64,000 nucleotides of DNA from a virus (Duplodnaviria > Caudoviricetes). Below the pieces are notes generated by a model that had not been told where the DNA came from, ran no database searches, and was given only the letters and a program-made list of their open reading frames with translations. The stretch is taken from positions 3,323-67,322 of IMG/VR virus record IMGVR_UViG_3300027276_000193; one strand, 5' to 3'. A program made the translations under genes and the position numbers. Shown here piece by piece: positions 3,146 to 58,778 of this stretch (the stretch's first letter is position 1; every line of letters begins with the position of its first letter).

Positions 3146-3616
3146 ATGCTTATTGTTGGGATTAATTGGATTCTAAGTTGGGTTCAGATCACAACGGGAA
3201 CCGGAACATATACGTGCCCGATGAAAGAAGAAGCTGATGATTTCTATTTTCGCTTCAAGGGACAATGGCATAGTGTGAGTGAATATGCTCCTGAGCGCTT
3301 AAGGGCAGAAATCCTATCGCACAAGCAGGGAAAGTATGAACAGCGGCAGTCGATCTCTCAGGCTGAATTTGAGGATATCTGCCGTGAAGTCCTTTCGAGT
3401 CATCCAAACATACTTGACTGCTGGTTTGAAGAACCCGGCATCGTGCATGTCGCTTATCCGTCCCATTCCGGTAAAACAAGGAATGGAGCCACCTTGTATT
3501 TCGGTGAAAAAGGATATATCACATACGCCGGGTGGAAACATAACGCCGGAAGTAATGAAGGCATATTTATTGGCGAAGAGATCAGCAGAAAGATTCAGTG
3601 TGCGCTGTATGAATAA
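3146..3616 (+). CDS. Hypothetical protein
   Basis: ORF (track 3014-3616; ATG 3146 after AAGGAG), followed by terminator. Confidence 0.55.
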   Translation: MLIVGINWILSWVQITTGTGTYTCPMKEEADDFYFRFKGQWHSVSEYAPERLRAEILSHKQGKYEQRQSISQAEFEDICREVLSSHPNILDCWFEEPGIVHVAYPSHSGKTRNGATLYFGEKGYITYAGWKHNAGSNEGIFIGEEISRKIQCALYE

Positions 3617-12097: not shown

Positions 12098-12550
12098 TTA
12101 TCCTTCAATCAAAATCTGTTTCTTTTCAGGAACCTTCGGGGCTTCCTTCTTAGGAATCATCAGGCTCAGTACACCATTCTCAAACTTGGCTTTTATGTCA
12201 TCTTCAGTAATGCTCTCACCCACATAGAAGCTGCGCTGCATGGTGCCGACGTAACGCTCCTGACGAAGCATCTTACCCTTGTTCTCCTTGTTCAAACTCT
12301 TCTCGGTGGAGATGGTCAGGTAACCGTTGTTCAGATCCAGTTTGATTTCATCCTTGTTGAAGCCAGGCAGATCCACATCCACCTCATAGCCTTCATCTGT
12401 TTCCTTCACATCGGTTTTCATCAGGCGGCTGGCATTCTTGCCGTAGAGCACATGCTCCGGACGCCCAAACCCACGGAAGAAGTCACGGTCAAAGTCATCA
12501 AAGACGTCAAACAGGTTTTCACCAAACACGGTAGGAAGATAAGTACTCAT
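12098..12550 (-). CDS. hsp20: Hsp20/alpha-crystallin small heat-shock protein
   Basis: MKTDVKETDEGYEVDVDLPGFNKDEIKL...RQERYVGTMQRSFYVG...AKFENGVLSLMIPK. Confidence 0.93.
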   Translation of the reverse strand: MSTYLPTVFGENLFDVFDDFDRDFFRGFGRPEHVLYGKNASRLMKTDVKETDEGYEVDVDLPGFNKDEIKLDLNNGYLTISTEKSLNKENKGKMLRQERYVGTMQRSFYVGESITEDDIKAKFENGVLSLMIPKKEAPKVPEKKQILIEG

Positions 12551-12681
12551 AATGCAAACCTCCAATTCATTGGCCTTGTACGCTTGGTTCATTGCCACGC
12601 TTGCAGGGTCGCATTAATTCCATCTTGTTCGGGCTCTCTTTCGATCCCCCTTCCTTGATGGTGTCTATATTATATATCTAA

Positions 12682-12867: not shown

Positions 12868-13971
12868 TTACTCACTGGTGATCTCGCTGTACTCCCCGGA
12901 AACCCATCCAACCTGGCTTCCGATCTTCACGGCCTGCCAGCCGTTGAAGGCGCTGGCCACGTACTCCAGCGTTGTGCCCGGCGCGACGGCGGTAATACGG
13001 CTATAGCTGGTGCCATTGCCCGTGCGGATGTTGACCTTCCCTCCGGAGGATTTGATCAGCACCCGGATGGTAGTCTGTCCGGCGACGGGCTGTTCCTGCT
13101 CCGGTTCGGGCTGCGTTTCCGTCATGGCCTGCTGCCCGGCATCGTCCTCCGCCACAGCGGCCATCAGGGCACCATGGGTCTGATCACCGTACTTGCCGTC
13201 CTGCTTGATTCCGGCCTTCTTCTGGAAAGCCCTCACGGCGGCTTCTGTCTTGCTGCCAAACTGACCGTCCACCTCAAGGGCGGCACCCAGCTGGTTCAGC
13301 AGTTCCTGCAGTGCTTTCACGTCCGTGCCGGAAGTGCCATTCTTCAGCAACCTGCTGCCCAGCGTGTACACGGTGACCGCCTCAACAGCGACCTGTGCGC
13401 CGCTGGTATCGCCGTAATCGATAAACGGCAGCTTGTACCAGTGTGTCCAGGGGCGCTTTTTCACCTGCGTCTTCACGCAGCCCCAGCTGAAGCCCTGCCA
13501 CTCCACAGCATATCCGTTGCCGATGTAGTATCCGGCATGACCGTCCTTGTACAGCGCCAGACCAGGGATCTCCGGCAGGGTGTCGATGGTGCCCCAGTCC
13601 ATGCCTTTCTTTTTTGCCCAGGAGAACATGCTGTTCGCGCCTTTGTCCGGACACCCGTTGGAGCCATATTTGCTGGTGATGGTTTTATCCGTCCCGATGG
13701 CTTCCAGTACCCCCTGACCGCCGTTTGTCCAGGCATAGCCCTTGCAGCCGCCAATGCAGTCAGACACGACAGCCTTGTTTGCAATGTCCTGCTTGTAACG
13801 GGACATGCGGCTGGAAGCATAAGAAGACGGATACTGGTTGCTCTTCCGGGACAGCAGACTGTTGGTGGCTTTGTAGACGCAGGTGCCGTACCAATAAGGC
13901 TGGCCGACCATCTTCTGGCACCAGTCGGCAAAGTGCTCATTGGTGAACGGCGTATTGATTCTTTCAGACAT
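12868..13971 (-). CDS. Endolysin: NlpC/P60-like catalytic domain + PG-binding_1 + SH3
   Basis: SDCIG...[10 protein letters not shown] catalytic Cys/His; [17 protein letters not shown]...[13 protein letters not shown]; [11 protein letters not shown]...GWVSGEY; directly after holin. Confidence 0.88.
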
Positions 13972-14004
13972 TTTCGTCACCTCCAAATGGGAAAAGGGCG
14001 GCGG

Positions 14005-14469
14005 TTATTCGCCGTCGCCCTGGTCGTCTTTGCCTTCCTTCTCATCCCGGTTGTGCAGCTGCTCCAGAACGGCCTTCAGCTTGTCCGGGATGGGCAGGCC
14101 GATGTAGGCCGCGTTCTCCAGCAGGCTGAGTCCCTCGTTGGAGAGGTAGAAGGCAATCACCGCACCACGAAGAGCACTGCCGGAGCCGATCACATGCAGA
14201 TCGACGATGTTCGCAATACCTACCATGAACAGGATGAGAACCTTCTTGCAAACACCCTTGAAACCCACGGCGCTGGACAGTTTCTTGTCCACGATGGCGC
14301 ACATGACGCCCGTGATGTAGTCCAGCGTCATAAAAATGAGCAGGGCGATCATCAGGCCGTCGATGCCTCCAAGGAAGTAACCCAGCCATCCGCCGATGGC
14401 CGTGATGGCGATCTGGATCTTTGCCCAGATCAGGTCGATAGAAAAGTTCCGCATTGTCGTTTCCTCCAA
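14005..14469 (-). CDS. Phage holin (holin 4-1 / toxin-secretion type)
   Basis: LDYITGVMCAI...LSSAVGFKGVCKKV...NEGLSLLENAAYIGLPIP. Confidence 0.92.
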   Translation of the reverse strand: MEETTMRNFSIDLIWAKIQIAITAIGGWLGYFLGGIDGLMIALLIFMTLDYITGVMCAIVDKKLSSAVGFKGVCKKVLILFMVGIANIVDLHVIGSGSALRGAVIAFYLSNEGLSLLENAAYIGLPIPDKLKAVLEQLHNRDEKEGKDDQGDGE

Positions 14470-38873: not shown

Positions 38874-40424
38874 TCAGATAATCAAAAGCCCACGAGTGTC
38901 GTAGACGGATTCGCCGCCCTGGTTCTTCATGGCTCTGTCCAGCGCCATGACCAGCGCGACCGCGCCGTCCACCTTCTCCGTGGATTTTTCCTTGTCGATT
39001 TTCAGGTTCCCGGCGGGATCAGTGCGCACGAAGGCATTGTCCATGTTCCACCGGAGCACCGGGTGCCCACCGTGATTCAGCTTCCGCTCCAGCACGATGC
39101 GCATCAGTTCTTTGGTCGGCGGCGACATATCCCGGAAGCCCTGTCCGAAGGGCACCATGTTGAAACCGTCGTCTTCCAGGGTCTGCACCATCATGGTGGC
39201 ATTCCATCGGTCATAGGCGATTTCCCGGATGTTGAACCGTTCGCCCAGCTTCGTGATGAACTGCTCTATAAAGCCGTAATGCACCACGTTGCCCTCGGTC
39301 GTATGAATGAAGCCCTGCCGCTCCCATTTGTCGTACATCACATGATCGCGCCGGACGCGCAGCTGCATGGTGTCCTCGGGGAGCCAGAAGTACGGCAGTA
39401 CGATGTACTGCTCTTCATCATCCCTTGGCGGGAACACCAGCACCATGGCGGTCAAGTCGGAAGTGGAAGAAAGGTCGAGCCCGGCATAGCAGGCGCGGCC
39501 TTCCAGTTCATACTCATTGACAGCGCCGCCGCATTCATCCCATTTGTCCATGGGCATCCAGCGGATACTCTGCTTGACCCACTGGTTCAGGCGCAGCTGA
39601 CGGAACATGTTCTCATCAGCGGGCGTCTCCTGGGCCTTGCGGAATGCGTCCCGTACCTTGTCGATGGAGATCGTCTGATCCAGGGATGGATTGGCCTTGT
39701 ACCAGTTTCGCTCATCCGTCCAGTCGGCGTCATCCGGCAGGCCGTAGAGCACAGGGTAGAAGCGAGGATCATCCTTCCTGCCTTCGATGATATCCAGGGC
39801 TTTTTGATGAACCTCCCAGCAGATGCTGTTCCGGTCGGTGCCAGCCGTTGTCAGCAGGAACCAAAGCGGCTGCTTCCGGGCGTCGCCGCTGCCCTGGGTC
39901 ATGACATCATACAGAGCGCGGGTGGGCTGGGTGTGAAGCTCGTCGAAGATGCAGGCGCTGACGTTCAGGCCGTGCTTGGTGGCCACTTCACTGGACAGAA
40001 CCTGATAGATACTTCCGGTCGGCTGGTAGACCATTCTTTTTGTAGAAGGAATGATCTTGATCCGCTTGCTGAGCGCCGGTGACTGCTTCACCATATCGAC
40101 GGCCACATCGAAAACGATAGCCGCCTGCTGACGGTCGCTGGCGCAGGAGTAAACCTCCGCCCGCCACTCATCATCATTGCAGAGCATGTTCAGGGCAATG
40201 GCAGCGCCGAGCTCACTCTTTCCGTTCTTCTTCGGGATCTCAATGTAGGCCGTATTGTACTGCCGCATGGATGGATCATCGTCCCGGACAGTGCCGAACA
40301 CATCCCGGATGATCTTTTCCTGCCAGGGAAGCAGCTTGAACGGCTCTCCGTGGAATTCTCCCTTGGTATGCTTCAGGCACTCAATGAACTGCGTCACCCG
40401 GCGTGCTTTCGCTTCACTGAACAT
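38874..40424 (-). CDS. terL: Terminase large subunit
   Basis: EIPKKNGKS Walker A, CIFDELH Walker B, AGLDLSSTSDLTA nuclease, KVDGAVA. Confidence 0.96.
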   Translation of the reverse strand: MFSEAKARRVTQFIECLKHTKGEFHGEPFKLLPWQEKIIRDVFGTVRDDDPSMRQYNTAYIEIPKKNGKSELGAAIALNMLCNDDEWRAEVYSCASDRQQAAIVFDVAVDMVKQSPALSKRIKIIPSTKRMVYQPTGSIYQVLSSEVATKHGLNVSACIFDELHTQPTRALYDVMTQGSGDARKQPLWFLLTTAGTDRNSICWEVHQKALDIIEGRKDDPRFYPVLYGLPDDADWTDERNWYKANPSLDQTISIDKVRDAFRKAQETPADENMFRQLRLNQWVKQSIRWMPMDKWDECGGAVNEYELEGRACYAGLDLSSTSDLTAMVLVFPPRDDEEQYIVLPYFWLPEDTMQLRVRRDHVMYDKWERQGFIHTTEGNVVHYGFIEQFITKLGERFNIREIAYDRWNATMMVQTLEDDGFNMVPFGQGFRDMSPPTKELMRIVLERKLNHGGHPVLRWNMDNAFVRTDPAGNLKIDKEKSTEKVDGAVALVMALDRAMKNQGGESVYDTRGLLII

Positions 40425-47769: not shown

Positions 47770-48035
47770 CGGCCTGTGGGCACACAATGCAAATAAAGTT
47801 TTCACGCGGGGATTTTCCTCCCGGCGGCGCTCCTGAATCTGTCGTAGTCCCGCAGTTCACGGCGGTGGATGGGATCAACTGTTTACAAATCATGCTTGAC
47901 CTGCTGAATTGTCTGAATAATGTGCTCCCGTTGATTCATGTTTTTTAGCCTCTTACATGTTACAATCTTCATCTGGATTAACGAAAGATCGTGTGCTATA
48001 CTTGCGTTGCCGGAAACGGCGAGGAGGTAGTAGGC

Positions 48036-48926
48036 ATGAAGGATAAACATGTATTGGCTTTCATGAGGGTTTTCTCGATTCTTGTTCTATTTGCTGTTTT
48101 TTTCAGCAGTTCATTAGCCGAAAGCAACGGTACTCAGATCGTCCATGTTCCCTTTGTTGATGTACCTATTCTTGAAACGCACAGAACGAGCTTCCCTAAA
48201 GATAAAAGATATGCAGTTTACTCTGGCCCTAGTGAAGACTATGTGCGTGCCGCAAATGGAAAAGCTGCCGTTTCAACGAATGATGCTATCCAGGCTTTTG
48301 CCAGTGAAAATGGATGGATCATGATTCAATATGCGATTGATCATGATCATCATCGTATTGGTTGGATTAAAGAAAATGCCAATCGATTCGCACCTTCAAT
48401 CAGCGAACTTCCTCCTTGTTCCCAATCTGCAACGCTGAAAGCAGGCTCAGTCATTACTGATGATCCGCTTTTTTCCCAAAGTCCACTCATGTCCTTTGAT
48501 ATGGAATTGAACGTGTATGTGCTTGGCCAAATAAACGATTGGATTTATATCGAAAGCGATTCTGGGGATTTGGTTCGTGGCTTTGTTCACAAAGATCAGT
48601 TGACTCCCGGTAACGTGTTCTACTTCTCTGATTGGTTACACGACTCATCCGCTTGGAATGGATATTTAGTCCTTGATCAGGACAACATCGCTTTTGAATC
48701 TGAACAGCTAATCGAATTGAATGGAATATCAGTGCCTCTTGCATCAATAGACATTTATGACAATTTATCAAATCAATTGTTATTAACTGTTTCCGAGAAA
48801 AATGAATTACTGCATTTTGAAGGTTCCGGTTATTTGCCGCCAGAAACCTCATCACTACGTATCGTACTATTTGATACAAATATGAATGAGGTTAAACTTG
48901 ATGAGGATTTCGTAATCGAGTGGTAA
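48036..48926 (+). CDS. Secreted protein with signal peptide and tandem SH3-like domains
   Basis: MKDKHVLAFMRVFSILVLFAVFFSSSLA signal; VYSGPSEDY...NGWIMIQY...RIGWIK and VLGQINDWIYIE...RGFVHK. Confidence 0.7.
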   Translation: MKDKHVLAFMRVFSILVLFAVFFSSSLAESNGTQIVHVPFVDVPILETHRTSFPKDKRYAVYSGPSEDYVRAANGKAAVSTNDAIQAFASENGWIMIQYAIDHDHHRIGWIKENANRFAPSISELPPCSQSATLKAGSVITDDPLFSQSPLMSFDMELNVYVLGQINDWIYIESDSGDLVRGFVHKDQLTPGNVFYFSDWLHDSSAWNGYLVLDQDNIAFESEQLIELNGISVPLASIDIYDNLSNQLLLTVSEKNELLHFEGSGYLPPETSSLRIVLFDTNMNEVKLDEDFVIEW

Positions 48927-48936
48927 ATTTTGATGG

Positions 48937-48966
48937 AGAGGAGGGTGGTTTGTTCCACCCTCCTCT
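48937..48966. terminator. Bidirectional terminator between convergent SH3 and hydrolase genes
   Basis: AGAGGAGGGTGG/CCACCCTCCTCT 12-bp stem. Confidence 0.8.
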
Positions 48967-48973
48967 TTTCTCA

Positions 48974-49690
48974 TTAGTGATTAATGTACTTCGACCAGCC
49001 CCAGTACTTCCACTTGTTATTCATTCCCGTGAGATTGGGGCCAGAATCCTCGGAATCACCATTGTTATACATAGCATCGATCGTATTATGCGAGCTGCAG
49101 GATTGATAGACAGCATGTTGATACTTCCCGTTGATCGTCTGCATGCCAGCATAAACGCCCATATGACCCTTTTTAGTAGAATCCTTTGTATCCTGTTGGA
49201 AAATCTCCATGCCTACCTGAAGAGCGTTATACCCGCCAAGAGATGCAATCGTACCCTTTTCGGACAAGTAGCTATTGTATTCCGTTGTGCATCCTTTACC
49301 ACCCTGCTTATTGCGTGCAAGATAAGGATAGTTCGCACAATCAACGATTTTCTTGGTTTCATTATAGCCACTGCTACAATACTTCCATCCATCGTTACAA
49401 TAGCTTTTGAGGTTGCTGATATACTGATCCACGGTCAGATTTCCGCTGGAAGTACCGGGATTAGTGTTGCCACCAGTACTGCCTCCGCTGGGCTGTGTGG
49501 CATCAAGATACTTGGACATGATGTAGCCAGTATAGCCATTATAGGTTGCGTTATGCCAACCAGTCGTAGAGGAAGGGGATGCTTCTACTGCCTTACCATA
49601 CGGCACACGCACTAAAACGGTGCCACCAGGCTTTTTACGCAGATTAACAGTTTCGTTCGTTGGAATGTTGCAAACATACATAGTCGCCAT
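48974..49690 (-). CDS. SH3 + NlpC/P60-like peptidoglycan hydrolase, no signal peptide
   Basis: VNLRKKPGG...GWHNATYNGYTGYIMSKYL; linker; VDCANYPY...GHMGVYAG catalytic Cys/His. Confidence 0.75.
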   Translation of the reverse strand: MATMYVCNIPTNETVNLRKKPGGTVLVRVPYGKAVEASPSSTTGWHNATYNGYTGYIMSKYLDATQPSGGSTGGNTNPGTSSGNLTVDQYISNLKSYCNDGWKYCSSGYNETKKIVDCANYPYLARNKQGGKGCTTEYNSYLSEKGTIASLGGYNALQVGMEIFQQDTKDSTKKGHMGVYAGMQTINGKYQHAVYQSCSSHNTIDAMYNNGDSEDSGPNLTGMNNKWKYWGWSKYINH

Positions 49691-49754
49691 TATTTTTCTC
49701 TCCTTTGAATGAAGTTTTTGATTGATGGAGGCTTTTCCATCGCTTTGTAGGTTC

Positions 49755-49936
49755 TGTGCTTTATCGCTGGCCAGCTTTTGCACGTGATAGACAGAAAGGA
49801 TAGAGAAGCGCCCCACAGATTCATCACCCGTGAGGCGTTCTCTATCCTTTCCTGTCGAGTGTATCATATCATAAAGGGCCTACTGGAATCTACTGGAATT
49901 CACTGGAATCAACTGGAATCAACTACCCAATTTCGG
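49755..49936 (-). repeat. 182-bp direct repeat copy A (putative late promoter: 4x10-bp repeats, TATGAT, long hairpin)
   Basis: About 12 mismatches versus 53685-53866 by manual alignment. Confidence 0.9.
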
Positions 49937-50069
49937 AACAACAATTCTCCAGTTCACGCTCCATCCTGTGGATATGCTTCTGCAGGTCACAGCGGAGTAT
50001 AACTCCCGCAGTCTTCAGGTCGGCCTTGACCTGCCGGATTTTCTGTACAAGCACGTCCCGATTGGCCAT
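49923..50069 (-). CDS. Small hypothetical protein (48 aa)
   Basis: MANRDVLVQKIRQVKADLKTAGVILRCDLQKHIHRMERELENCCSEIG after AGGAAG; below ORF-track cutoff. Confidence 0.5.
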   Translation of the reverse strand: MANRDVLVQKIRQVKADLKTAGVILRCDLQKHIHRMERELENCCSEIG

Positions 50070-50110
50070 ATTAACACTTCCTAAATGTTTCATTCTTCAT
50101 ATAGATTAAC

Positions 50111-51941
50111 TAATACTTCCCCAATTCCCTGTACTATAGGATCGGCCTAAAACTCCCCGTTTTCGAACATTTCTGGCCACAATCCAATAAAATCGCTCCG
50201 GATCTTTCTGGATTTGCTTTCAAACGGGTCCTCTCCAGCCAGGAAGGGAGCCGTTTTCATTGCAAAAAAGTTCTAAAAATCCCTTGCATATAGTACTGTT
50301 ATGTGATATACTGTACTATATATTGAGGGGGGGTGTTTTAGGTGGCAGTACCAGAATCCATCCGGAAGGTTCCTCGTCCTGTCAACACCATCGTCCAGGA
50401 TAATGGAAAGGACGGTCCCAACCGCTATCCTGTCCGTGAGCGCATCAGCGTCACGTATGTTTCCGGTGGCAATTCACAGCCCAAGAACGGAAAAGTCATC
50501 GGCCATATTGTGGATGGCATGTACGTTCCGCTCGGCGTTGCCGCCGTCAAAGCAGAGCCAGATATGTTGTCCTACGGGGCCAGTGCATTTGTCAGATCCG
50601 TTTCCAGAGATCTGTTTACGGAACTGCTTGGCGTTTATACACCCAAGGATGCCTATACCATCATGGCCATTGCCTCCCTTCGGGTCATCAAGCCGGAAGT
50701 ATCTGCAAAGCGTCTTGCGACACAATACCAGCAAACGTTCGTCAGCAAGTTCTATCCGGGAATCGGCCTCTCCGAGAACACAGTCAGCGCTTTCCTTCAG
50801 GGAATCGGCCGTGACGGAAACCGCCGGTTGGCGTTTTACCATAAGCGAGCGGCGTCTGTCGCTGCGGACCACCATGTGGCAATTGACGGAATGCTCAAGC
50901 AGGATAACAGCATTGTCAACGATCTGTCAGCTTTCTCCTACAAGGCAAGAACCAAGGGATGCCGGGAGGTATCAATTCTCTATGCATATGACATTGAGGA
51001 GATGGAACCGATCTGTGCGGAGGTATTCCCTGGGAACAGCATTGATGCGACATCCTACAAATCCTTTATTCGGGATAATGATATCCGGAAAGGAATCATT
51101 GTTGCAGACAAGGGTTTTCCGCCATCTCAGATCAGCGACGAACTTGCGGAACGTCCCGAGTTGCATTTCCTTACCCCTATCAAGAGAAACGACTCCCGAA
51201 TCACGAATAACAACATGCTGGCCTTCGAAGGCGTTCTGTCCGGTATTGGAGACCATGTCCTGTGCAAGAAGAAAGAGATCAAGGGCGGTCGATTCCTCTA
51301 TGCATACCGATCTGCGCATAAGTCAGCAATGGAAGAAGCATCTTTTCTTGCCCGGCGCGAGGACAAGAACGACTACAATCCGGCAATCTACGAGAAGAAA
51401 CGAGAAGTATTCGGCGTCATCGTCTTCGAGTCGGATCAGGACCTCGATCCCAGGACCGCTTACCTCTGTTATGACGATCGGTGGCTGCTGGAACTGGTCT
51501 TCAATCGGTACAAGAACGATGAATGCCTGGACAGAACCAATGTGCAGGGTGACTTTTCCGTCATTGGAAGTGAGTTCATTAACTTCATTTCCACGGTCAT
51601 TACCTGCCGCCTAATCCGGAAGGCCCGGGAAGCCGAGCTGCTCAAACTCATGTCTTACGGGGATCTCATGGATGATCTGAATTCTGCATGGCGGAAGGTG
51701 GATGCGCCGGAAGAACCGGCGACCAATGACAACGGCTGGGTCCACACTAACGTTGGTGTTTTCGAAGAACTGGAAGCACTGGGACTCTCCAAACCGATTC
51801 CGAAACCCGAACCGAAAAAGCGTGGTCGGAAAAAGAAGGAATCTGTAGTCAACAAACCGAAAAGACCCAGAGGAAGGCCAAGAAAGAACCCTGTAAACGC
51901 TATCGACAAGCTGCTATAGTACAGCGATTTGGGATTTCGTT
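50111..51941 (+). mobile_element. Insertion sequence (IS1634/IS4-like)
   Basis: Inverted repeats CCCAATTCCCTGTACTATAG (50120-50139) and CTATAGTACAGCGATTTGGG (51914-51933), 18/20 match; candidate target duplication ATTAAC at 50105-50110 and 51942-51947. Confidence 0.75.
50342..51919 (+). CDS. DDE transposase
   Basis: VAIDG, VADKGF, YDDRWLLELVFNRYKN; AT-hook-like KRPRGRPRK tail. Confidence 0.88.
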   Translation: MAVPESIRKVPRPVNTIVQDNGKDGPNRYPVRERISVTYVSGGNSQPKNGKVIGHIVDGMYVPLGVAAVKAEPDMLSYGASAFVRSVSRDLFTELLGVYTPKDAYTIMAIASLRVIKPEVSAKRLATQYQQTFVSKFYPGIGLSENTVSAFLQGIGRDGNRRLAFYHKRAASVAADHHVAIDGMLKQDNSIVNDLSAFSYKARTKGCREVSILYAYDIEEMEPICAEVFPGNSIDATSYKSFIRDNDIRKGIIVADKGFPPSQISDELAERPELHFLTPIKRNDSRITNNNMLAFEGVLSGIGDHVLCKKKEIKGGRFLYAYRSAHKSAMEEASFLARREDKNDYNPAIYEKKREVFGVIVFESDQDLDPRTAYLCYDDRWLLELVFNRYKNDECLDRTNVQGDFSVIGSEFINFISTVITCRLIRKAREAELLKLMSYGDLMDDLNSAWRKVDAPEEPATNDNGWVHTNVGVFEELEALGLSKPIPKPEPKKRGRKKKESVVNKPKRPRGRPRKNPVNAIDKLL

Positions 51942-52022
51942 AATTAACTGAGAACCTTATGGTATACTTGCTTTGGCAGGCTAAACATTATGATAGAATG
52001 CCTGTGTAGGAGGAACATTTAG

Positions 52023-52562
52023 ATGGCAATCAAACCTATCCCGTTAATCATTTTATTGGTCGTGTGTTGTCTTGCTGTTTCAGCTTTGGCAACAACGAAT
52101 AAAAATCTGGATTCTTCTGGATACCATGGTGATCAAATTGGGAATAATATTATTCAAGCTTCATCTGAAGATAGCGTTTATATAATTTGCGATAAGCTGT
52201 ATTTACACCAAGAACCTGTTGAGAAATCCGCTTGTTTAAGGCTGTTGACTTACGGTGAGGAGGCTCAACTGATTTCTGCCTCTGATGGTTGGCTTCAAGT
52301 AAACTATGTGTTCATGAACGATAATGAAGTTCAATCCGTTTCCGGGTGGCTTGATTCAGATTACTGTGTATGTGCAGCTGCCTATTATATTGCAATGCAT
52401 CCCACACAGATCCGGATAGCGCCTAAAGCAGATGCATCTCTCATTTGCTATATTGATACATATGATAGCTTAAGAGTTTTATACGAAATAAACGATTATT
52501 ATTGTGTAAGCATCAATGGTGCTGTCGGTTTCGTTGAAAAAGAGAGCGGGCAGGAAGATTAA
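52023..52562 (+). CDS. Secreted protein with signal peptide and two SH3b-like domains
   Basis: MAIKPIPLIILLVVCCLAVSALA signal; LYLHQEP...DGWLQVNY...SGWLDSDY and IRIAPKAD...NDYYCVSINGAVGFVEK. Confidence 0.75.
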   Translation: MAIKPIPLIILLVVCCLAVSALATTNKNLDSSGYHGDQIGNNIIQASSEDSVYIICDKLYLHQEPVEKSACLRLLTYGEEAQLISASDGWLQVNYVFMNDNEVQSVSGWLDSDYCVCAAAYYIAMHPTQIRIAPKADASLICYIDTYDSLRVLYEINDYYCVSINGAVGFVEKESGQED

Positions 52563-52580
52563 CTTCCTGCCCACATCATC

Positions 52581-53651
52581 TTACTTTAGCACAGACTTTG
52601 CCTTGTTGTAATATCCAAGCCGCACAGTATAGCCGGAAGAACTGCCCTTGACTGTAGTTGTTACTTTTTTTACTGTAGCATCAGCTGACTTGTTATTATA
52701 ACTATCGATAATTTGGTTCAGGCCCTTACTCTTGCACCAAAACCACGCCGCACTAATGAATGGGTAGTTATCGGCAACGTATTTTGTTGCGTGTGCTGCG
52801 GGAGAGTAGATTTGAGAATCATTGATGAAATTCTTGAAGCTACTATAGTTATAATCGTGCGTTAGTTGCATAAACCCACCGCCACAATAAGGCGCATAGC
52901 TCGGACTGCCATTATACTGAGATTTGCTCCATCCTGCATGATAGGTATACTCAGTAAAGGTCTTTCCGAGATCCGTTTCTTTGCAACCCTGCGCAAGAAA
53001 ATGCCGAATGTGTATTTTTTCAGTAAAATCGAATCGGCTATCATTGATTGCAGCATTTAGAAGGGCAATATTTGCAGGACGAAGAATAAGTTTACCAGTA
53101 AAGCCAATGCGTGCGAGCTTACCAGCAGTCAAACAACAAGTTCCTTTGCCTGAGAACCACCCTGTATCGGACACATTGTCTTCCAACAGCGCAAATGTAA
53201 TCTGTCCAGCAAGCCCGTCAGCTGTAATTCCGTTGTTGGATTGATAAGTTTTGACTACGGACTTCAGAGAATCATCATAAGCGCCACTTGTTGCACAAGT
53301 ATATCCCTTATTGTTTAACAAGGATCTTAACGTAGTGACAGCAGTTCCCGTATCGCCAACTTTCAGATAGCCATCGCCATTTCTAATCGTTGACAAACTT
53401 GGAGCTGTAGTTGTGCCTGTACCACCAGAGGAACCACTCCCCCAATTCTCATTCGTTATGAATTCGCTCATTACATAGCCAACATTATTGACATTTCCAT
53501 CCCAGTATGTTTCATACCAGGTCGTATTATAAGCTTTGATCGGAATAGTAGCGTTGTTGTCAAAACGACCCCAATATTCATATCCTGCAATAGGCTGCTT
53601 GCGGCAAAACAACTTTCCGCCTGTAACTTGACCAGTTCCCCATTCGCTCAT
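52581..53651 (-). CDS. SH3-like + PG-binding_1 + GH19 lysozyme/chitinase-like hydrolase, no signal peptide
   Basis: LKVGDTGTAVTTLRSLL...VKTYQSNNGITADGLAG; HFLAQGCKET, GGGFMQLTHDYNY, SAAWFW, VTTTVKGSSSGYTVRLGYYNKAK. Confidence 0.85.
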   Translation of the reverse strand: MSEWGTGQVTGGKLFCRKQPIAGYEYWGRFDNNATIPIKAYNTTWYETYWDGNVNNVGYVMSEFITNENWGSGSSGGTGTTTAPSLSTIRNGDGYLKVGDTGTAVTTLRSLLNNKGYTCATSGAYDDSLKSVVKTYQSNNGITADGLAGQITFALLEDNVSDTGWFSGKGTCCLTAGKLARIGFTGKLILRPANIALLNAAINDSRFDFTEKIHIRHFLAQGCKETDLGKTFTEYTYHAGWSKSQYNGSPSYAPYCGGGFMQLTHDYNYSSFKNFINDSQIYSPAAHATKYVADNYPFISAAWFWCKSKGLNQIIDSYNNKSADATVKKVTTTVKGSSSGYTVRLGYYNKAKSVLK

Positions 53652-53684
53652 AATTGAAATCCTCCTGATTAAAATATTGATGTT

Positions 53685-53866
53685 TGTGCTTTATCGCTGG
53701 CCAGCTTCTGCACTTGATAGACAGAAAGGATAGAGAAACGCCTCGCAGGTTCATCGCCCGCGAGGCGTTCTCTATCCTTTCTTGTCGAGTGTATCATATC
53801 ATAAAGGGCCTACTGGAATCCACTGGAATTCACTGGAATCTACTGGAATCAGCTACCCAATTTCGG
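53685..53866 (-). promoter_or_regulatory. 182-bp repeat copy B: putative late promoter directly downstream of the RinA/ArpU-like gene
   Basis: Four 10-bp repeats (core ATTCCAGT on minus), TATGAT -10-like box, ~30-bp hairpin; overlaps the stop of the 53849-54265 gene. Confidence 0.7.
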
Positions 53867-54265
53867 GACGGCCACACAGCGGAGAGCCTTAGAGTGCACC
53901 TTGAACACATTGCTGACGGTACAGTGCATCTTGTCAGCGATCTCCTCCCAGCTGCGAAAGCAAATGTATCTGAGCTCCAGCAGTGTCTGGTATTCCGGAT
54001 TTTCCACCGCGTAGATCGTGTGCATGATCTCCTGCTTCTTGTCTATCAGCTGATCGATGTCCGCATTGATCTCCGTCTGCATATCCACCATCTTGGCGAT
54101 GGCATCCTCCATCGAATGAACGTTCCTTGTGTGGCTGACCACATCATCCTGCATGATGCTGGTGGTTTTGGTGGACATTTCCTTCAGCGTTGCCATCATA
54201 TCCAGTTTGGAATTAATCCGCTGGTCAAGATGAAACGCCTGATTCAGATATTCCTTTGCGGTCAT
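53849..54265 (-). CDS. DUF1492 / RinA-ArpU-like late transcriptional activator
   Basis: MTAKEYLNQAFHLDQRINSKL...YQTLLELRYICFRSWEEIADKMHCTVSNVFKVHSKAL. Confidence 0.85.
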   Translation of the reverse strand: MTAKEYLNQAFHLDQRINSKLDMMATLKEMSTKTTSIMQDDVVSHTRNVHSMEDAIAKMVDMQTEINADIDQLIDKKQEIMHTIYAVENPEYQTLLELRYICFRSWEEIADKMHCTVSNVFKVHSKALRCVAVPKLGS

Positions 54266-54480: not shown

Positions 54481-54701
54481 GGCATCACCGCCTTCGTTTT
54501 CTCTTCAAGGTAACCGTAAATGGCGATCAGGATGGTTGTAGCCAGCGGGTGATTACCCCATTTGGCGGCTATCGCGCCAATGTCCGCCGCAGCATCCATC
54601 CACCAATCCACAGCTGCATCAGTGCCGTTCGGTGGCGGCTGGCTGTGTGCTCCCAGATAGGTAGCGGCATCCAGCATGATTTTCAGTTCCGTATTTGTCA
54701 T
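54477..54701 (-). CDS. Hypothetical protein
   Basis: ATGA overlaps on both sides, RBS GGAGG. Confidence 0.65.
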   Translation of the reverse strand: MTNTELKIMLDAATYLGAHSQPPPNGTDAAVDWWMDAAADIGAIAAKWGNHPLATTILIAIYGYLEEKTKAVMP

Positions 54702-56056
54702 CGTGCGCCTCCCAGCTGTGCCTTTACCGCGTCGATGAGTGCAGACTGTGTTTTATCCTTCCGCTCCAGGGCCTGCATGATCTGTACGTCGATGGTGCCC
54801 TTTGTCATGATGTGGTGGATCACCACGGTGGAGGAAGTCTGCCCCTGCCGCCACAGCCGGGCATTGGTCTGCTGATACAGTTCCAGGCTCCATGTCAGGC
54901 CGAACCACACCAGAGTAGAGCCGCCTGCCTGCAGGTTCAGGCCGTGTCCGGCGGAGGCAGGATGGATGACCGCCAAGGGGATCCTTCCATTATTCCAGTC
55001 AGTGATGTCCTTGCTGGTGCAGATTTCTCTTGCCGCCGGGAACCGCTCCTGAATACGCTTCAGGTCATGCTTGAACCAGTAGGCCACCAGCAGCGGTTTG
55101 CCGTTCGCGCCTTCGATTAGATCCTCCAAGGCGTCCAGCTTCCGATCGTGAATCTGCACGGTATCCTTTTCCTCGGTGTACACAGCACCGTTGGCCATCT
55201 GACACAGCTTTCCGGACAGGGCAGCGGCGTTCACCGCATCGATTTCCTTACCCTTGACCTGAACGATCAGCTGTTCCTTCATCTGGTCATACACCTGCTG
55301 CTCATCATCACTCATGCCTACCAGCACGCGGTTCATAATGCACTCCGGCATCTTCAGGTGATCCGTCGCCCGCATGGAAATGGTGATGTCTCCGATCTTT
55401 CGGTAGATTTCATCTTCCGCGCCAAGCCGGGGCTTATATGAGAAGATCTGCTGCATGCTGCGCTTGTCGGGAACAAAGTAGGCTTCGCGGTACCGGGTGA
55501 TAAAACGTCCGAGCCGCTGGCCCATGTCCAGGAGCCGGAACTCTGCCCACAGATCCATCAGACCGTTGCTGCTGGGTGTACCCGTCAGGCCTACGATACG
55601 CTTCACGGATGGCCGCACCTTCAGGAGGCTCTTGAACCGTTTTGCCTGCCAGCTTTTAAAGGAAGACAGCTCGTCGATCACAATCATGTCATACCGGAAG
55701 GGCAAGCCGCTGTCTTCCACCAGCCACTGCACGTTTTCCCGGTTGATGATGTGCAGGAAGGCAGGCCGCATCAGCGCTGCCAGACGTTCCTTTTCGGTGC
55801 CGACCGCCACACTGTAGCTCAGATCCCGCAGGTGATCCCACTTTTGAATTTCCGCAGGCCATGTGTCCCTGGCCACCCGTAGCGGGGCGATCACCAGCAC
55901 CCGGCTGATCTCAAAAGCATCCAGGCACAGCTCCTGAATAGCAGTCAGCGTGATCACGCTCTTGCCAAGGCCCATATCCAGCAGGACGGCTGCTTCCGAG
56001 TGCGTCAGGATGAAATCCGTCGCATAAGCCTGATAATCATGGGGCACATATTTCAT
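54698..56056 (-). CDS. SNF2-family DEAD/DEAH helicase
   Basis: LDMGLGKS, VIDELS, LTGTP, HPASAGHGLNLQ, QQTNARLWRQGQ. Confidence 0.93.
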   Translation of the reverse strand: MKYVPHDYQAYATDFILTHSEAAVLLDMGLGKSVITLTAIQELCLDAFEISRVLVIAPLRVARDTWPAEIQKWDHLRDLSYSVAVGTEKERLAALMRPAFLHIINRENVQWLVEDSGLPFRYDMIVIDELSSFKSWQAKRFKSLLKVRPSVKRIVGLTGTPSSNGLMDLWAEFRLLDMGQRLGRFITRYREAYFVPDKRSMQQIFSYKPRLGAEDEIYRKIGDITISMRATDHLKMPECIMNRVLVGMSDDEQQVYDQMKEQLIVQVKGKEIDAVNAAALSGKLCQMANGAVYTEEKDTVQIHDRKLDALEDLIEGANGKPLLVAYWFKHDLKRIQERFPAAREICTSKDITDWNNGRIPLAVIHPASAGHGLNLQAGGSTLVWFGLTWSLELYQQTNARLWRQGQTSSTVVIHHIMTKGTIDVQIMQALERKDKTQSALIDAVKAQLGGAR

Positions 56057-56318
56057 CCAGCACACCTCCGATCTGCTCAGGATGGTCTATGCAGTACACC
56101 GGAAACCCAAGCGACTCCAGCTGCCTTTTCCGCTTTACCTGCAGTGGGCGTGGGTGTTTTCCTGGAGCTTTCAGTTCCACAAACGCGACGCAGCGATTGG
56201 GCATCAGTACAATTCGGTCGGGAACACCGGCGAGGCCGGGACTGACAAACTTCAGTGCCAGACCGCCTCGATCCCGGACTGCCTTTCGCAGCGCCTGCTC
56301 CACTTGTTTTTCAATCAT
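56037..56318 (-). CDS. VRR-NUC domain protein
   Basis: LKFVSPGLAGVPDRIV...FVELKAPG. Confidence 0.92.
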   Translation of the reverse strand: MIEKQVEQALRKAVRDRGGLALKFVSPGLAGVPDRIVLMPNRCVAFVELKAPGKHPRPLQVKRKRQLESLGFPVYCIDHPEQIGGVLDEICAP

Positions 56319-56477: not shown

Positions 56478-58778
56478 TCATTCCAAAAAGTCGTCGGTCA
56501 CATCGGCCTTCGTGCCCAGCGCCAGCCCGGTTACGAAGGACCCGTTCCGCAATTTCTGACGCGTGAAGCCCTCGTTCTCCAGGGCATTGTAGAAATCCGT
56601 CGTGGAGCGGGTGTACTCGCCTGTGTCCGCGCAGAAGGTGCGGTAGGCGGAGTAGAGCTCGCCGGATTTGACCTGCAGGCTGTTGCCGATCTCGCAGCGC
56701 TCATTCAGGAAATGACCCAGCCAGTCATTGTCCTCACGGTATTGCTTGATGGCCCGTTGGACACATTCTGGCAGAGGAATCTTGAAGTCATGCTTAATGA
56801 CATCCGCTGCGCCCTCAATTACCCAGGAGAGGATCGCGCCGCCAGCATTTCTGAACAGGTAATCGCTGTAGTTTTTGATGTCGCTCTTGCCTTCGATCTT
56901 CGCATCAAAGGGAATCACGATCAGCCGTCGCCAGATTCCGGCATCCTTGGCACCGACCTTGGGCAGATGGTTGGTATAGAGCACGACGGTATGGCTGGGC
57001 GTATAGGCAAAGGGATCCTTATACTTTTTCTCCGCCGACACATCGTCCGTGGAGCACAGCTGCTTTACGATGGAGGTGTTCAAGCGGGTACCCTCCTCAA
57101 GCTCGGAGGCAATCAGCATGCGCTTACCCTTGGCCTCCGCCAGCTCCGGACGCACGTTCCGCTTGCAGCCAACGGTCAGAGCATCGGCGGAAATATTGCC
57201 GCTGTAGGTGCCGAGCACATGAGCCAGGGTATTCCAGAAAGTGGATTTACCGTTGCGGCCATCGCCATAGGCAATAATGAGCGCTTCCACAAACACTTTT
57301 CCCACGGCAATCATTCCGGCAACCTGCTGCACGTAGTGAATCAGCTCCTTGTCGCCGCAGAAGAACAGGTTTAGGGCATCCTGCCACAGGGCTTTCCCTT
57401 CTTCGCCCGGCTGCACGGCGGTCATCTTCGTGACAAAGTGATCCGCGCTGTGCGGCATCGCGCCAGCCAGGCCGAGCCGCAGGTCATACGCGCATTCCGG
57501 TGTATTCAGCAGGAAGGGATCAGCGTCCAGATCCTGGGGCCGGATCAGCACCATTGGCTGCACCTCCGCCAGAACAGCCTTGATGTTTTTGGACTGGCGG
57601 TAATTCATGGCCGTGGACTGGTACCCGATGGCCCGCATATAGGTCAGGTACGCCTGCAGCTGATCGTCGTTCATGTCGCTCTGGGCCTTCTTCTTGCTTT
57701 CCCTGTTCATCAGGTCGGCAGCGCCGTTCTGCTCCAGAATCTTGTAGGCCTCCGTCGCGGCAGTGGACGCTTCCTCCAGCTGCATATCGGAGAGATCATG
57801 CATGATGGCATGGGCGCGGGGCTTTGATTCCTCCCAGATATCGCCGTTGTACACGATGAAATCCGTTGCCGGTGAATAGCGCATCTGACCGGAGAAAACC
57901 TCTGCCAGCACACGCGCCTCCGCCACATCGGAATTGTCGCTGGGCCTGTACAGGAAATCGCCGTGTCGGGCAGCGTATTCCTCGGGAGACACATAGTCCT
58001 CACTCTGGGAGATCTTCCGGTAAAACCGTACAGCGCTGTGCCAGATCGTATCCAGCTCGCGCTGCTCTAGAGGCGGCACACAGGACGCGGCCTTCTCCAG
58101 AAACTTCTGCCGGGCCTCTTCCGTTTCACCCAGACGCTTGAGCAGCTTCCCGGCAAAGTGGGACATGGTCGCGTTTCTGCTTCCTTCGGGAATGATGCCG
58201 CTGGCATCCGGCAGAGGCAGGTTGGCGAAGGCCTCCTCGTTATCCGGGTAATACAGATCCAGGCATTCGTTCAGGGTGATGGTGCCTTCATGGAACTGTA
58301 CCTGCGGATCCTTGGTGCCATAAAAGAAGCGGGCCGCATCCAGCGCCTTCGTGTCGAAATACGGGAAGATGCTGTTGATTTGCTTTTTCAGATTCTTATA
58401 GGTTTCCGGATCGGTCATCTCATCAATCAGGAAAAAGCAATGGAACCTGGGCCGGGCGCTCTTGCCCTCCTTGGGCAGGTTGTGGTGACGGCTGAAGTGG
58501 AAGCCGACCGTGACGTCCGGGAACAGGCTGAGAATCTTCTCCGGGGAAACCCACTCCTCAGGGTTCTCGCTGTGCCCGTTATCACAATCCAGCGCCAGGC
58601 AGTTGGTGCGAATGAAGTTCTCGTTGGAACGATAGCCATTGGCGTATTCAACCGCCACATAATCCTGGCACACGGCCTGCCGGAGAGATTCCTCGTCTCC
58701 GGCACAGACCTTGTGCGGATAAAGGCAGTTCCACTCATTGCCAATACAGTTGGCTCGATAAAGATTGAAAGCTGCCAT
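56478..58778 (-). CDS. Primase/helicase (PriCT + D5_N + P4-family SF3 helicase)
   Basis: EGSRNATM PriCT; LDADPFLLNTP; YGDGRNGKST Walker A; WRRLIVIPF. Confidence 0.93.
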   Translation of the reverse strand: MAAFNLYRANCIGNEWNCLYPHKVCAGDEESLRQAVCQDYVAVEYANGYRSNENFIRTNCLALDCDNGHSENPEEWVSPEKILSLFPDVTVGFHFSRHHNLPKEGKSARPRFHCFFLIDEMTDPETYKNLKKQINSIFPYFDTKALDAARFFYGTKDPQVQFHEGTITLNECLDLYYPDNEEAFANLPLPDASGIIPEGSRNATMSHFAGKLLKRLGETEEARQKFLEKAASCVPPLEQRELDTIWHSAVRFYRKISQSEDYVSPEEYAARHGDFLYRPSDNSDVAEARVLAEVFSGQMRYSPATDFIVYNGDIWEESKPRAHAIMHDLSDMQLEEASTAATEAYKILEQNGAADLMNRESKKKAQSDMNDDQLQAYLTYMRAIGYQSTAMNYRQSKNIKAVLAEVQPMVLIRPQDLDADPFLLNTPECAYDLRLGLAGAMPHSADHFVTKMTAVQPGEEGKALWQDALNLFFCGDKELIHYVQQVAGMIAVGKVFVEALIIAYGDGRNGKSTFWNTLAHVLGTYSGNISADALTVGCKRNVRPELAEAKGKRMLIASELEEGTRLNTSIVKQLCSTDDVSAEKKYKDPFAYTPSHTVVLYTNHLPKVGAKDAGIWRRLIVIPFDAKIEGKSDIKNYSDYLFRNAGGAILSWVIEGAADVIKHDFKIPLPECVQRAIKQYREDNDWLGHFLNERCEIGNSLQVKSGELYSAYRTFCADTGEYTRSTTDFYNALENEGFTRQKLRNGSFVTGLALGTKADVTDDFLE

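Follow-up and report, generated by a model that had tools for sequence, protein, structure and literature searches.

Tandem cassettes of wall hydrolases and convergent secreted partners in a temperate phage: a candidate lysin and immunity system

Background

Why would a temperate phage that encodes a canonical holin and endolysin carry two further peptidoglycan hydrolases, each convergent with a gene for a secreted protein? The question is raised by positions 47,991 to 53,866 of a 64,000-nucleotide (nt) stretch of viral DNA (Duplodnaviria; Caudoviricetes; positions 3,323 to 67,322 of IMG/VR record IMGVR_UViG_3300027276_000193), referred to here as the window. A first-pass annotation of the window had described two tandem cassettes in this region as a candidate bacteriolytic effector-immunity system. 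We find that the region is two copies of a mobile two-gene cassette, located between a late activator gene and the late genes. The best single explanation, which we hold at even probability on comparative sequence evidence, is that each cassette pairs a lysin released at lysis with its cognate secreted immunity protein; binding, inhibition, and expression in the lysogen are predictions of this explanation. The comparative data suggest that the secreted partner may protect carrier cells from the cognate hydrolase. The main rival is linkage of functionally independent morons, while a helper role for the partners and an exclusion function like that of Spackle are lesser ones.

Wall hydrolases and secreted partners

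Each cassette consists of a minus-strand hydrolase gene and a plus-strand partner gene that converge on one another, and all four genes are preceded by strong Shine-Dalgarno sequences. Hydrolase A (48974-49690, minus strand; 238 amino acids, aa) has an SH3b domain at its N-terminus (Pfam E 2.5e-4; PDB entry 2kq8, E 1e-3) followed by an NlpC/P60 endopeptidase-like domain. The Pfam NLPC_P60 model does not match this protein, and the NlpC/P60-like assignment of the first-pass annotation is upheld by its fold. The AlphaFold2 (AF2) model (predicted local distance difference test score, pLDDT, 90.7) adopts the papain-like alpha+beta fold of NlpC/P60 enzymes, and Foldseek matches it at probability 1.0 to CwlO (8wt3; target-normalized TM-score, TMt, 0.66), Acd24020 (7cfl, 0.69), and LytE (8i2d, 0.69), with TMt values against these proteins ranging from 0.66 to 0.72. 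The candidate catalytic residues C118 (in D-C-A-N-Y), H176 (in G-H-M-G-V-Y), and H192 stand in the expected order, and the H176 motif is nearly invariant in an alignment of relatives (A4). The annotated start codon at 49690 is supported by relatives that open with the same MATMYV.

Hydrolase B (52581-53651, minus strand; 356 aa) begins with an SH3b domain, followed by a PG_binding_1 domain and a GH19-like lysozyme/chitinase-type domain. The peptidoglycan-binding domain that had been annotated here is clear (PG_binding_1, E 9e-10), and the GH19 assignment is more tentative: the PF00182 match (E 0.005) reaches 17 bits against a cut-off of 25.5 bits, and PDB entry 3w3e, which we take to be a GH19-like protein, is matched at E 0.0035. 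Residues 209-356 are also similar to endolysin and chitinase families in PHROG (E 4e-13 to 2e-4). As annotated, both enzymes lack a signal peptide and contain an SH3 domain, the SH3b domain standing directly at the N-terminus in each. They are additional to the canonical lysis cassette of the phage (12868-14469, minus strand), in which both the holin (14005-14469; Phage_holin_4_1, E 4e-42) and the endolysin (12868-13986) were identified.

The two partners have the shared architecture that the annotation ascribed to them, a signal peptide followed by two SH3-like domains. Export was called with a hydrophobicity heuristic and inspection by eye. Partner A (48036-48926, plus strand; 296 aa) has no Pfam match, and its AF2 model (pLDDT 88.4) consists of a helix (residues 2-26), a disordered linker, two SH3b-like domains, and a C-terminal beta-sandwich. 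The model aligns with the SH3_3 domain of the phiSM101 endolysin (Z 7.5, root-mean-square deviation 2.0 over 63 residues), and Foldseek matches it to the tandem SH3b domains of NlpC1 at probability 1.0. Partner B (52023-52562, plus strand; 179 aa) has a hydrophobic N-terminus and two SH3_3 stretches (PF08239, E 1.3e-10). Ratios of nonsynonymous to synonymous substitution rates (dN/dS) are 0.25 for partner A, compared with a 76%-identical relative, and 0.43 for partner B; the partners are therefore real genes. With ratios of 0.10 and 0.16 for the hydrolases, the partners are under purifying selection yet evolve faster than the enzymes they face. A protein identical to partner A is present on hundreds of contigs.

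Promoters and transcription units

Each hydrolase gene is preceded by one copy of a direct repeat (49755-49939 and 53685-53869, minus strand). The two copies noted in the first-pass annotation are confirmed, and the repeat measures 185 nt (93% identity between copies) instead of 182 bp. Read on the minus strand, each copy contains four phased 10-bp boxes with a GATTCCAGT core (49882-49921 and 53812-53851), a -10-like region with TACACT in a TATGATATGATACACT stretch common to both (49858-49873 and 53788-53803), a 26-bp hairpin (49794-49851 and 53724-53781), and a GGCC-loop motif (49756-49783 and 53686-53713). A ribosome-binding site (RBS) and the hydrolase start codon follow downstream. The box pattern has six matches in the window, compared with 0.05 expected, all within the two repeat copies; no box copies were found near the packaging genes and the large terminase gene (terL, 38874-40424) or elsewhere in the window.

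The position of the repeats points to their function. Copy 2 opens inside the last codons of a DUF1492 gene (53849-54265, minus strand), and its four boxes begin at the stop codon of that gene. The product, a DUF1492/sigma-70 region 4 protein of the LtrB late-activator type, matches PF07374 (E 2.1e-9, above the cut-off), Sigma70_r4_2 (E 1.5e-5), and the transcriptional regulator family phrog_36 (E 2.6e-25). Activators of the Ltr group, among them LtrB (the DUF1492 family), switch on a late promoter by binding to direct repeats that immediately follow the activator gene itself (Quiles-Puchalt et al., PMC3753634). Because the four boxes occupy exactly this published position, the 185-nt repeat, which had been proposed to be a late promoter, can be read as an Ltr-dependent late-promoter module; this reading is well founded by analogy, and binding of the activator is predicted. 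Copy 1 is opened by the last codons of a 56-aa open reading frame (ORF) of no known family (49923-50093, minus strand), which is 100% conserved in all close loci. The genes behind both copies are not terS but hydrolases that end at terminator-like hairpins. The 26-bp hairpin lies right behind the putative late transcription start and is highly stable (-42 and -44 kcal/mol in the two copies), and the copies differ from one another by compensatory changes (A-U to G-C). It is possible that this hairpin acts as an attenuator, a stability element, or an antitermination site.

The partner genes carry signals of a different kind. A 33-nt element containing TGnTATACT is present upstream of both (47977-48009 and 51943-51975), and it includes the extended -10 sequences TGCTATACT of partner A (47994-48002, plus strand) and TGGTATACT of partner B (51960-51968, plus strand). 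Partner A has a GAGGAGG RBS at 48021-48027. A hairpin terminator with a 9-bp GC-rich stem and a T-run (48940-48963, plus strand) lies between the convergent genes of unit A, and a terminator-like hairpin with 12 pairs and a T-run (52546-52574, minus strand) lies directly behind the stop codon of hydrolase B. Since each partner has its own extended -10, RBS, and terminator, each cassette would comprise two opposed, self-contained transcription units, one dependent on the activator and the other on a housekeeping-type promoter. The two units are separated by an IS1634-family insertion sequence (IS) (50112-51942, plus strand; 525-aa DDE transposase at 50342-51919) flanked by an ATTAAC(T) target duplication and inserted just upstream of the partner B promoter. 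This element is missing in related loci L006 and L008, including loci that are otherwise 99.9% identical; the insertion is therefore recent, and the ancestral state is two directly adjacent cassettes.

A promoter and terminator of this type are as expected for a moron expressed in the lysogen, and such expression is predicted for the partners. As had been annotated, the cassette block is also richer in AT than the rest of the phage (43% GC versus 55-60% in the phage core). An AT-rich region with its own promoter and terminator is typical of morons in general, and it also speaks for the main rival explanation. In that explanation the genes are linked but functionally independent morons, the partners being secreted wall-binding conversion genes (for surface change, receptor masking, or adhesion) and the hydrolases being extra endolysins that share with them a recombination hotspot behind the late activator. 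We consider this unlikely on the comparative evidence below.

A modular family of cassettes

The same layout is found in related loci, where one, two, or three units stand behind DUF1492, confirming that the cassette is a reusable unit. These loci, which are designated by numbers with the prefix L, were found in part around the identical partner A protein and other family members and in part by searching genomes and metagenomes with an alignment of the SH3b head only, the whole-hydrolase alignment being too diverse for a locus search. They come from Eubacteriales/Clostridiales genomes and gut metagenomes, and the cassettes belong to a polymorphic family carried by prophages and further mobile elements of Clostridia from gut and rumen. 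L008 has three cassettes behind DUF1492, the third pair being a secreted protein of 170 aa and, opposite it, an SH3b/PG_binding_1 protein of 305 aa. In L032, DUF1492 is followed by a CHAP enzyme with a 361-aa protein, a SpoIID enzyme with a 147-aa protein, and a third unit, while L067 contains two different cassettes and L015 has a relative of partner B beside a 385-aa secreted protein and a PG_binding_1-SH3b-CHAP enzyme. Other natural variants have two cassettes with or without the IS, or lack one or both hydrolases.

The N-terminal SH3b domain (approximately 66 aa, MATMYV...) is mostly 65-83% identical across homologues of hydrolase A, and it is fused to NlpC/P60, CHAP, Amidase_6, Phage_lysozyme2, or Hydrolase_2 (SleB-like) domains or to an unknown domain of approximately 450 aa. 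The NlpC/P60 domain is also found behind a PG_binding_1 head. A convergent ORF with a signal-peptide-like N-terminus is present 45-185 nt from nearly all intact SH3b-headed enzymes inspected, and the contexts of relatives in protein databases agree with this pattern. In total, about 15 distinct enzyme/partner combinations have a convergent, signal-peptide-like partner. When the same heuristic was applied to pseudo-genes of these loci, 26 of 190 were signal-peptide-like, and most of these were the partners themselves. Independent morons would hardly account for some 15 hydrolase types each having a convergent signal-peptide neighbour, which is far above the background in the same loci.

The partners are less uniform than the layout. 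SH3b domains occur in the partner A family, in partner B, and in the partners of L029, L050, and L055, whereas the family associated with CHAP enzymes appears beta-propeller-like, the 170-aa partner gives a weak PepSY-like match (score 0.84, a lead only), and others have no assignment. The two-SH3 architecture proposed as a common feature of the partners thus applies to both pairs of the window without extending to the family as a whole, and this heterogeneity of folds is in accordance with functionally independent morons.

Several features of individual family members were observed in passing. A 600-aa member (L056:5001-6809 and L042:4992-6788) has two SH3b heads and a C-terminal part of approximately 450 aa without a Pfam match, in which the His/Cys motifs SSHGD and FAACRQ, recognized by eye, could suit a caspase-like protease. 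In relatives that lack DUF1492 (L034:1588-3087 and L054:3061-4544), the hydrolase leader is immediately preceded by genes for an extracytoplasmic function (ECF)-type sigma factor and a membrane anti-sigma-like protein, and these cassettes may be wired to a different dedicated regulator. The arrangement in these non-phage relatives recalls clostridial loci for toxins and bacteriocins that are under sigma-factor control. In L032 (1-3298), a ZorA-like defence gene and a Phage_holin_4_1 holin are located just upstream of DUF1492 and the three cassettes; no structural phage genes are in view in this locus, which may be a domesticated release module.

Just 5' of the RBS, these hydrolase genes also have a leader structure in common, in which 4-6 pairs make up the outer stem, a bulge is rich in A, and a second stem of 3 bp closes a GGCC loop that is invariant (L029:3431-3479, L036:1326-1375, L039:1469-1519, L054:4929-4977, L056:4926-4974, and others). 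Compensatory changes such as GCU/AGC, GAU/AUC, and GGU/GCC are present in the stems. When 310 kb of fetched loci were scanned with a covariance model built from nine class-2 leaders, 24 sites matched (E up to 1), mostly directly 5' of wall-hydrolase genes. In the resulting alignment, which was fitted to the model, 90% of cells are paired and five pairs are changed on both sides. The two leader copies of the window (49756-49783 and 53686-53713) have a shorter 5' bulge; they were missed by the model and recognized by eye. No Rfam family corresponds to the repeat or the leader, and a match to ctRNA_pGA1 was dismissed as chance (22.6 bits versus a threshold of 45 bits).

Co-variation of partners with catalytic domains

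Judged by sequence relationships, partner families track the catalytic domain of the hydrolase and not its N-terminal head. Enzymes of the NlpC/P60 type occur with members of the partner A family at successive levels of hydrolase/partner identity, namely 93%/76% in L067, 73%/40% in L036, and 54%/39% in L039, and the partner A family is retained in L036 even though the hydrolase head has been swapped to PG_binding_1. Likewise, one CHAP lineage occurs with a family of 385-aa partners in L015, L049 (70%/46%), and L032 (48%/22%), with different heads. The check for co-variation suggested in the first-pass annotation was therefore positive in these relatives, with two partner families following two catalytic families at three divergence levels each despite head swaps. 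Since it is the catalytic domain and not the SH3b head that partners follow, they more probably recognize this domain or the scissile bond than compete for the wall ligand of the head.

That partner families follow the catalytic domain is also compatible with a positive accessory role, in which the partner is bound to the wall in advance and recruits, activates, or orients its cognate hydrolase after release through the holin, comparable to the free wall-binding modules of clostridial endolysins or to YpeB-SleB; the partner would then promote lysis instead of protecting from it. The tandem SH3b architecture of partner A is the same as that of the clostridial endolysin modules, and the PepSY-like lead for the 170-aa third partner would fit as well. 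However, the convergent orientation and the separate sigma-A-like promoter uncouple the partner from the late promoter that drives the enzyme, and partners are kept intact after deletion of their hydrolases, including in a chromosomal island of three orphans described below, which would be difficult to understand if the factor were of use only together with its enzyme. An accessory role thus appears improbable to us.

Loss of hydrolases and orphan partners

Hydrolases and partners differ in how they are lost. Among loci with 99% identity or more, L005, L007, and L010 have lost hydrolase A by deletion. For hydrolase B there are truncations in L005, L007, and L046, a deletion in L006, and an interrupting stop in L045, and L007 retains only a 77-aa stump of a third hydrolase. 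These amount to at least four hydrolase losses, compared with zero losses of partners, all of which are 100% intact. The same asymmetry argues against independent morons, since close loci would not be expected to lose hydrolases four times or more and partners never. A 221-aa plus-strand gene that seemed to replace hydrolase A in L006, L012, and L014 proved to be a gene-caller artefact, hydrolase A being intact there.

Locus L007, which is part of a complete bacterial chromosome (CP069419.1), shows what remains after such losses. In L007 (1-12891), as in L005, three intact partners (170, 296, and 179 aa) lie beside hydrolase stumps. The neighbours of the L007 island are non-phage genes (TetR, oleate hydratase (MCRA), and glutaminase), and neither an activator nor an intact enzyme is present, so that the island resembles an orphan immunity island. 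Secreted proteins of 373 and 139 aa in the same island were not counted as orphan partners, having no similarity to known partners. An MCRA gene is also located near the Amidase_6 cassette of L029. In one RNA-library assembly from sheep gut, unit A is present both in full and with hydrolase A deleted (joint at 49067/49843, 775 nt skipped); the two forms therefore coexist in one community.

Orphan partners in chromosomes would also serve as defence genes if the partners act in superinfection exclusion. T4 Spackle is a secreted inhibitor of the gp5 lysozyme, a phage wall hydrolase, and by the same logic the partners would inhibit the wall-degrading enzymes of incoming related phages or elements that have the same catalytic domains, and would not serve to guard against lysins from siblings. 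However, the hydrolases of the window lie behind the late activator and far from the tail genes (approximately 14.5-29 kb), a Pfam search for a virion-association domain in them found none, and a cognate enzyme in the same cassette is unneeded for exclusion alone. We regard this explanation as very improbable.

Proposed mechanism

A lysis-released lysin with cognate secreted immunity would work as follows. After induction, the DUF1492/LtrB protein would bind the four boxes and switch on the late promoter in each 185-nt repeat. Only then would the signal-less hydrolases be made, from an mRNA with a structured leader that ends at the terminator behind the gene. They would reach the wall only through the membrane opened by the holin, adding bond specificities to that of the canonical endolysin. 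Released at lysis, they would bind through their SH3b heads to neighbours of the same clade and cut their walls. Release and killing from outside are proposed because the enzymes lack a signal peptide, holins are present in the same elements as several cassettes, and Gram-positive walls are generally sensitive to external lysins. The partner, in turn, would be exported from the lysogen by its signal peptide and retained in the wall via its SH3b domains, where, acting from outside, it would neutralize the cognate hydrolase through a block on the catalytic domain or through protection of the substrate. Lysogens and partner-only cells would thus survive lysins from lysing siblings, and cells without the partner would not.

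Several observations weigh against this interpretation. No known inhibitor fold was recognized in the fold searches with partner A, and partner B consists of two SH3b domains alone. An intact hydrolase in L040 is accompanied by only a 114-aa fragment of an A-family partner; the L042 hydrolase, 68% identical to that of L056, has an unrelated secreted protein on the same strand; two Amidase_6 cassettes have unrelated partners; and L052, also an exception, has been rearranged by insertion sequences. No convergent secreted partner was found beside the canonical endolysin (12868-13986), which is also released at lysis, as independent morons would predict. Distant members of the partner A family stand alone, both as chromosomal genes without a nearby hydrolase and as a moron between portal and terminase genes, and this too favours independence. 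Partners without hydrolases, which the first-pass annotation had named as evidence against its proposal, hence do occur, and they are of two kinds: the close cases carry hydrolase remnants and are orphaned partners, while the distant ones belong to a broad family of secreted tandem-SH3b proteins. Finally, the partner gene lies right next to the 3' half of the hydrolase gene, which encodes the catalytic part. Exchange of blocks that reach from the conserved promoter/SH3b end to the following repeat would therefore carry both along in the absence of a functional tie, and linkage alone would predict co-variation. Against linkage as the sole cause, the association holds at partner identities of 22-46% and across swaps of the hydrolase N-terminus.

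A broader interpretation is that the cassettes form a polymorphic lysin/anti-lysin system in mobile elements of gut and rumen Clostridia, with swappable arrays, colicin-like killing that spares kin, and orphan partners that act as defence islands. This is more tentative, and we place it somewhat below even probability. If the partners do confer immunity, temperate phages in anaerobic gut bacteria would possess a means of waging kin-selective warfare through their own lysis, and carrier cells a means of surviving lysins that act from without. This would bear on prophage maintenance in dense communities, on the frequent multiplication of endolysin-like genes in Clostridia prophages, and on the use of endolysins as antimicrobials, to which natural proteins that inhibit lysins would readily supply resistance. 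Even without immunity, the analysis defines a large modular family of SH3b-headed hydrolases and unstudied families of secreted partners, together with a duplicated Ltr-type promoter module for genes other than terS and a conserved structured hydrolase leader.

Phage context

The window derives from a provirus record in IMG/VR and represents a temperate, siphovirus-like phage of rumen or gut Clostridia. On the minus strand, replication genes are followed by DUF1492, the cassette region, a ParB-methylase gene, terL, the structural genes, the holin, and the endolysin. The DUF1492 gene is placed after the genes for an SNF2 helicase (54698-56065, minus strand) and a primase-like protein (56478-58778, minus strand), and the large terminase gene (38874-40424, minus strand) lies beyond the cassette region with the ParB-methylase gene. 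The canonical endolysin gene is immediately followed, on its own strand, by a gene for an Hsp20-like small heat-shock protein (12098-12598, minus strand; recognized by eye from the translation). A 188-aa plus-strand ORF that converges on the endolysin was rejected as a partner, being antisense to the Hsp20-like gene.

Sequencing runs that contain the stretch come from bovine gut, sheep gut, and anaerobic digesters, and 80-93% of it is covered by metatranscriptomes of digesters and of gut samples (sheep, bovine, and other). The RNA data are assembled contigs, with one depth per contig, no information on strand or ends, breaks at repeats, and possible carry-over of DNA. Depth in these contigs is lower over DUF1492 than over the cassettes, for which the phage-less island form could equally account. 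Scans of IMG/VR with all four cassette proteins and the box pattern revealed no relatives; the single match to the box pattern, L028, has nothing else in common with the window. A search of phage GenBank entries with the whole region gave a sole match of 176 nt, within the regulator gene.

Comparison with known systems

Literature searches for a phage lysin/immunity or anti-lysin system, in which most subscription journals were outside the coverage, retrieved no matching description. No compared system combines a late-activator module for each cassette, holin-dependent signal-less enzymes, convergent partners with their own promoters, and swappable arrays. The Tae-Tai and Tge-Tgi pairs of type VI secretion systems (e.g., Tse1-Tsi1) consist of peptidoglycan-hydrolase effectors and secreted immunity proteins of contact-dependent antagonism. 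They resemble the cassettes in that a wall-cutting enzyme of the NlpC/P60, amidase, or lysozyme class is encoded next to a signal-peptide protein that is exported to the enzyme's site of action, that enzyme and partner families are polymorphic and matched, and that orphan partners persist without the enzyme. Unlike these pairs, the cassettes have no secretion apparatus or trafficking domain, and their enzymes are driven by a late activator and would be released by the holin. In addition, their host is Gram-positive, so that the partner must stay in the wall, and SH3b domains are present in several partners; their genes are convergent and do not form an operon; and neutralization is predicted here.

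A further counterpart is Bac41 of Enterococcus faecalis (bacL1, bacL2, bacA, and bacI), a system on a mobile element with wall-hydrolase effectors, one of which has wall-targeting SH3 repeats, with BacL2 as a dedicated positive transcription regulator and BacI as the immunity protein for self-protection (bioRxiv 10.1101/2020.11.20.391417). The cassettes share with Bac41 mobile hydrolases with SH3 domains in a Gram-positive setting, a dedicated activator, and a putative immunity gene, in a comparison of layout. However, the SH3b domain is N-terminal in the enzymes described here, each enzyme has one partner, and the arrays are swappable and located in a prophage late region with a holin. A precedent for secreted inhibition in the Firmicutes is IseA (YoeB) of Bacillus subtilis, which inhibits the NlpC/P60 D,L-endopeptidases LytE and CwlO, and 8i2e, the structure of LytE in complex with IseA, is one of the fold matches to hydrolase A. 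Partner A, which is all-beta (SH3b and sandwich), did not match IseA in the fold searches, and IseA regulates housekeeping autolysins rather than being part of a mobile polymorphic pair.

The control region has its closest counterpart in the Ltr systems (RinA, ArpU, LtrB = DUF1492, and LtrC), in which direct repeats, three to four in number, are located immediately distal to the stop codon of the activator gene and before the promoter (PMC3753634), as they are here. In the published Ltr systems these repeats are upstream of terS, whereas in the window they precede hydrolases, and the promoter-leader module is duplicated here and triplicated in L008.

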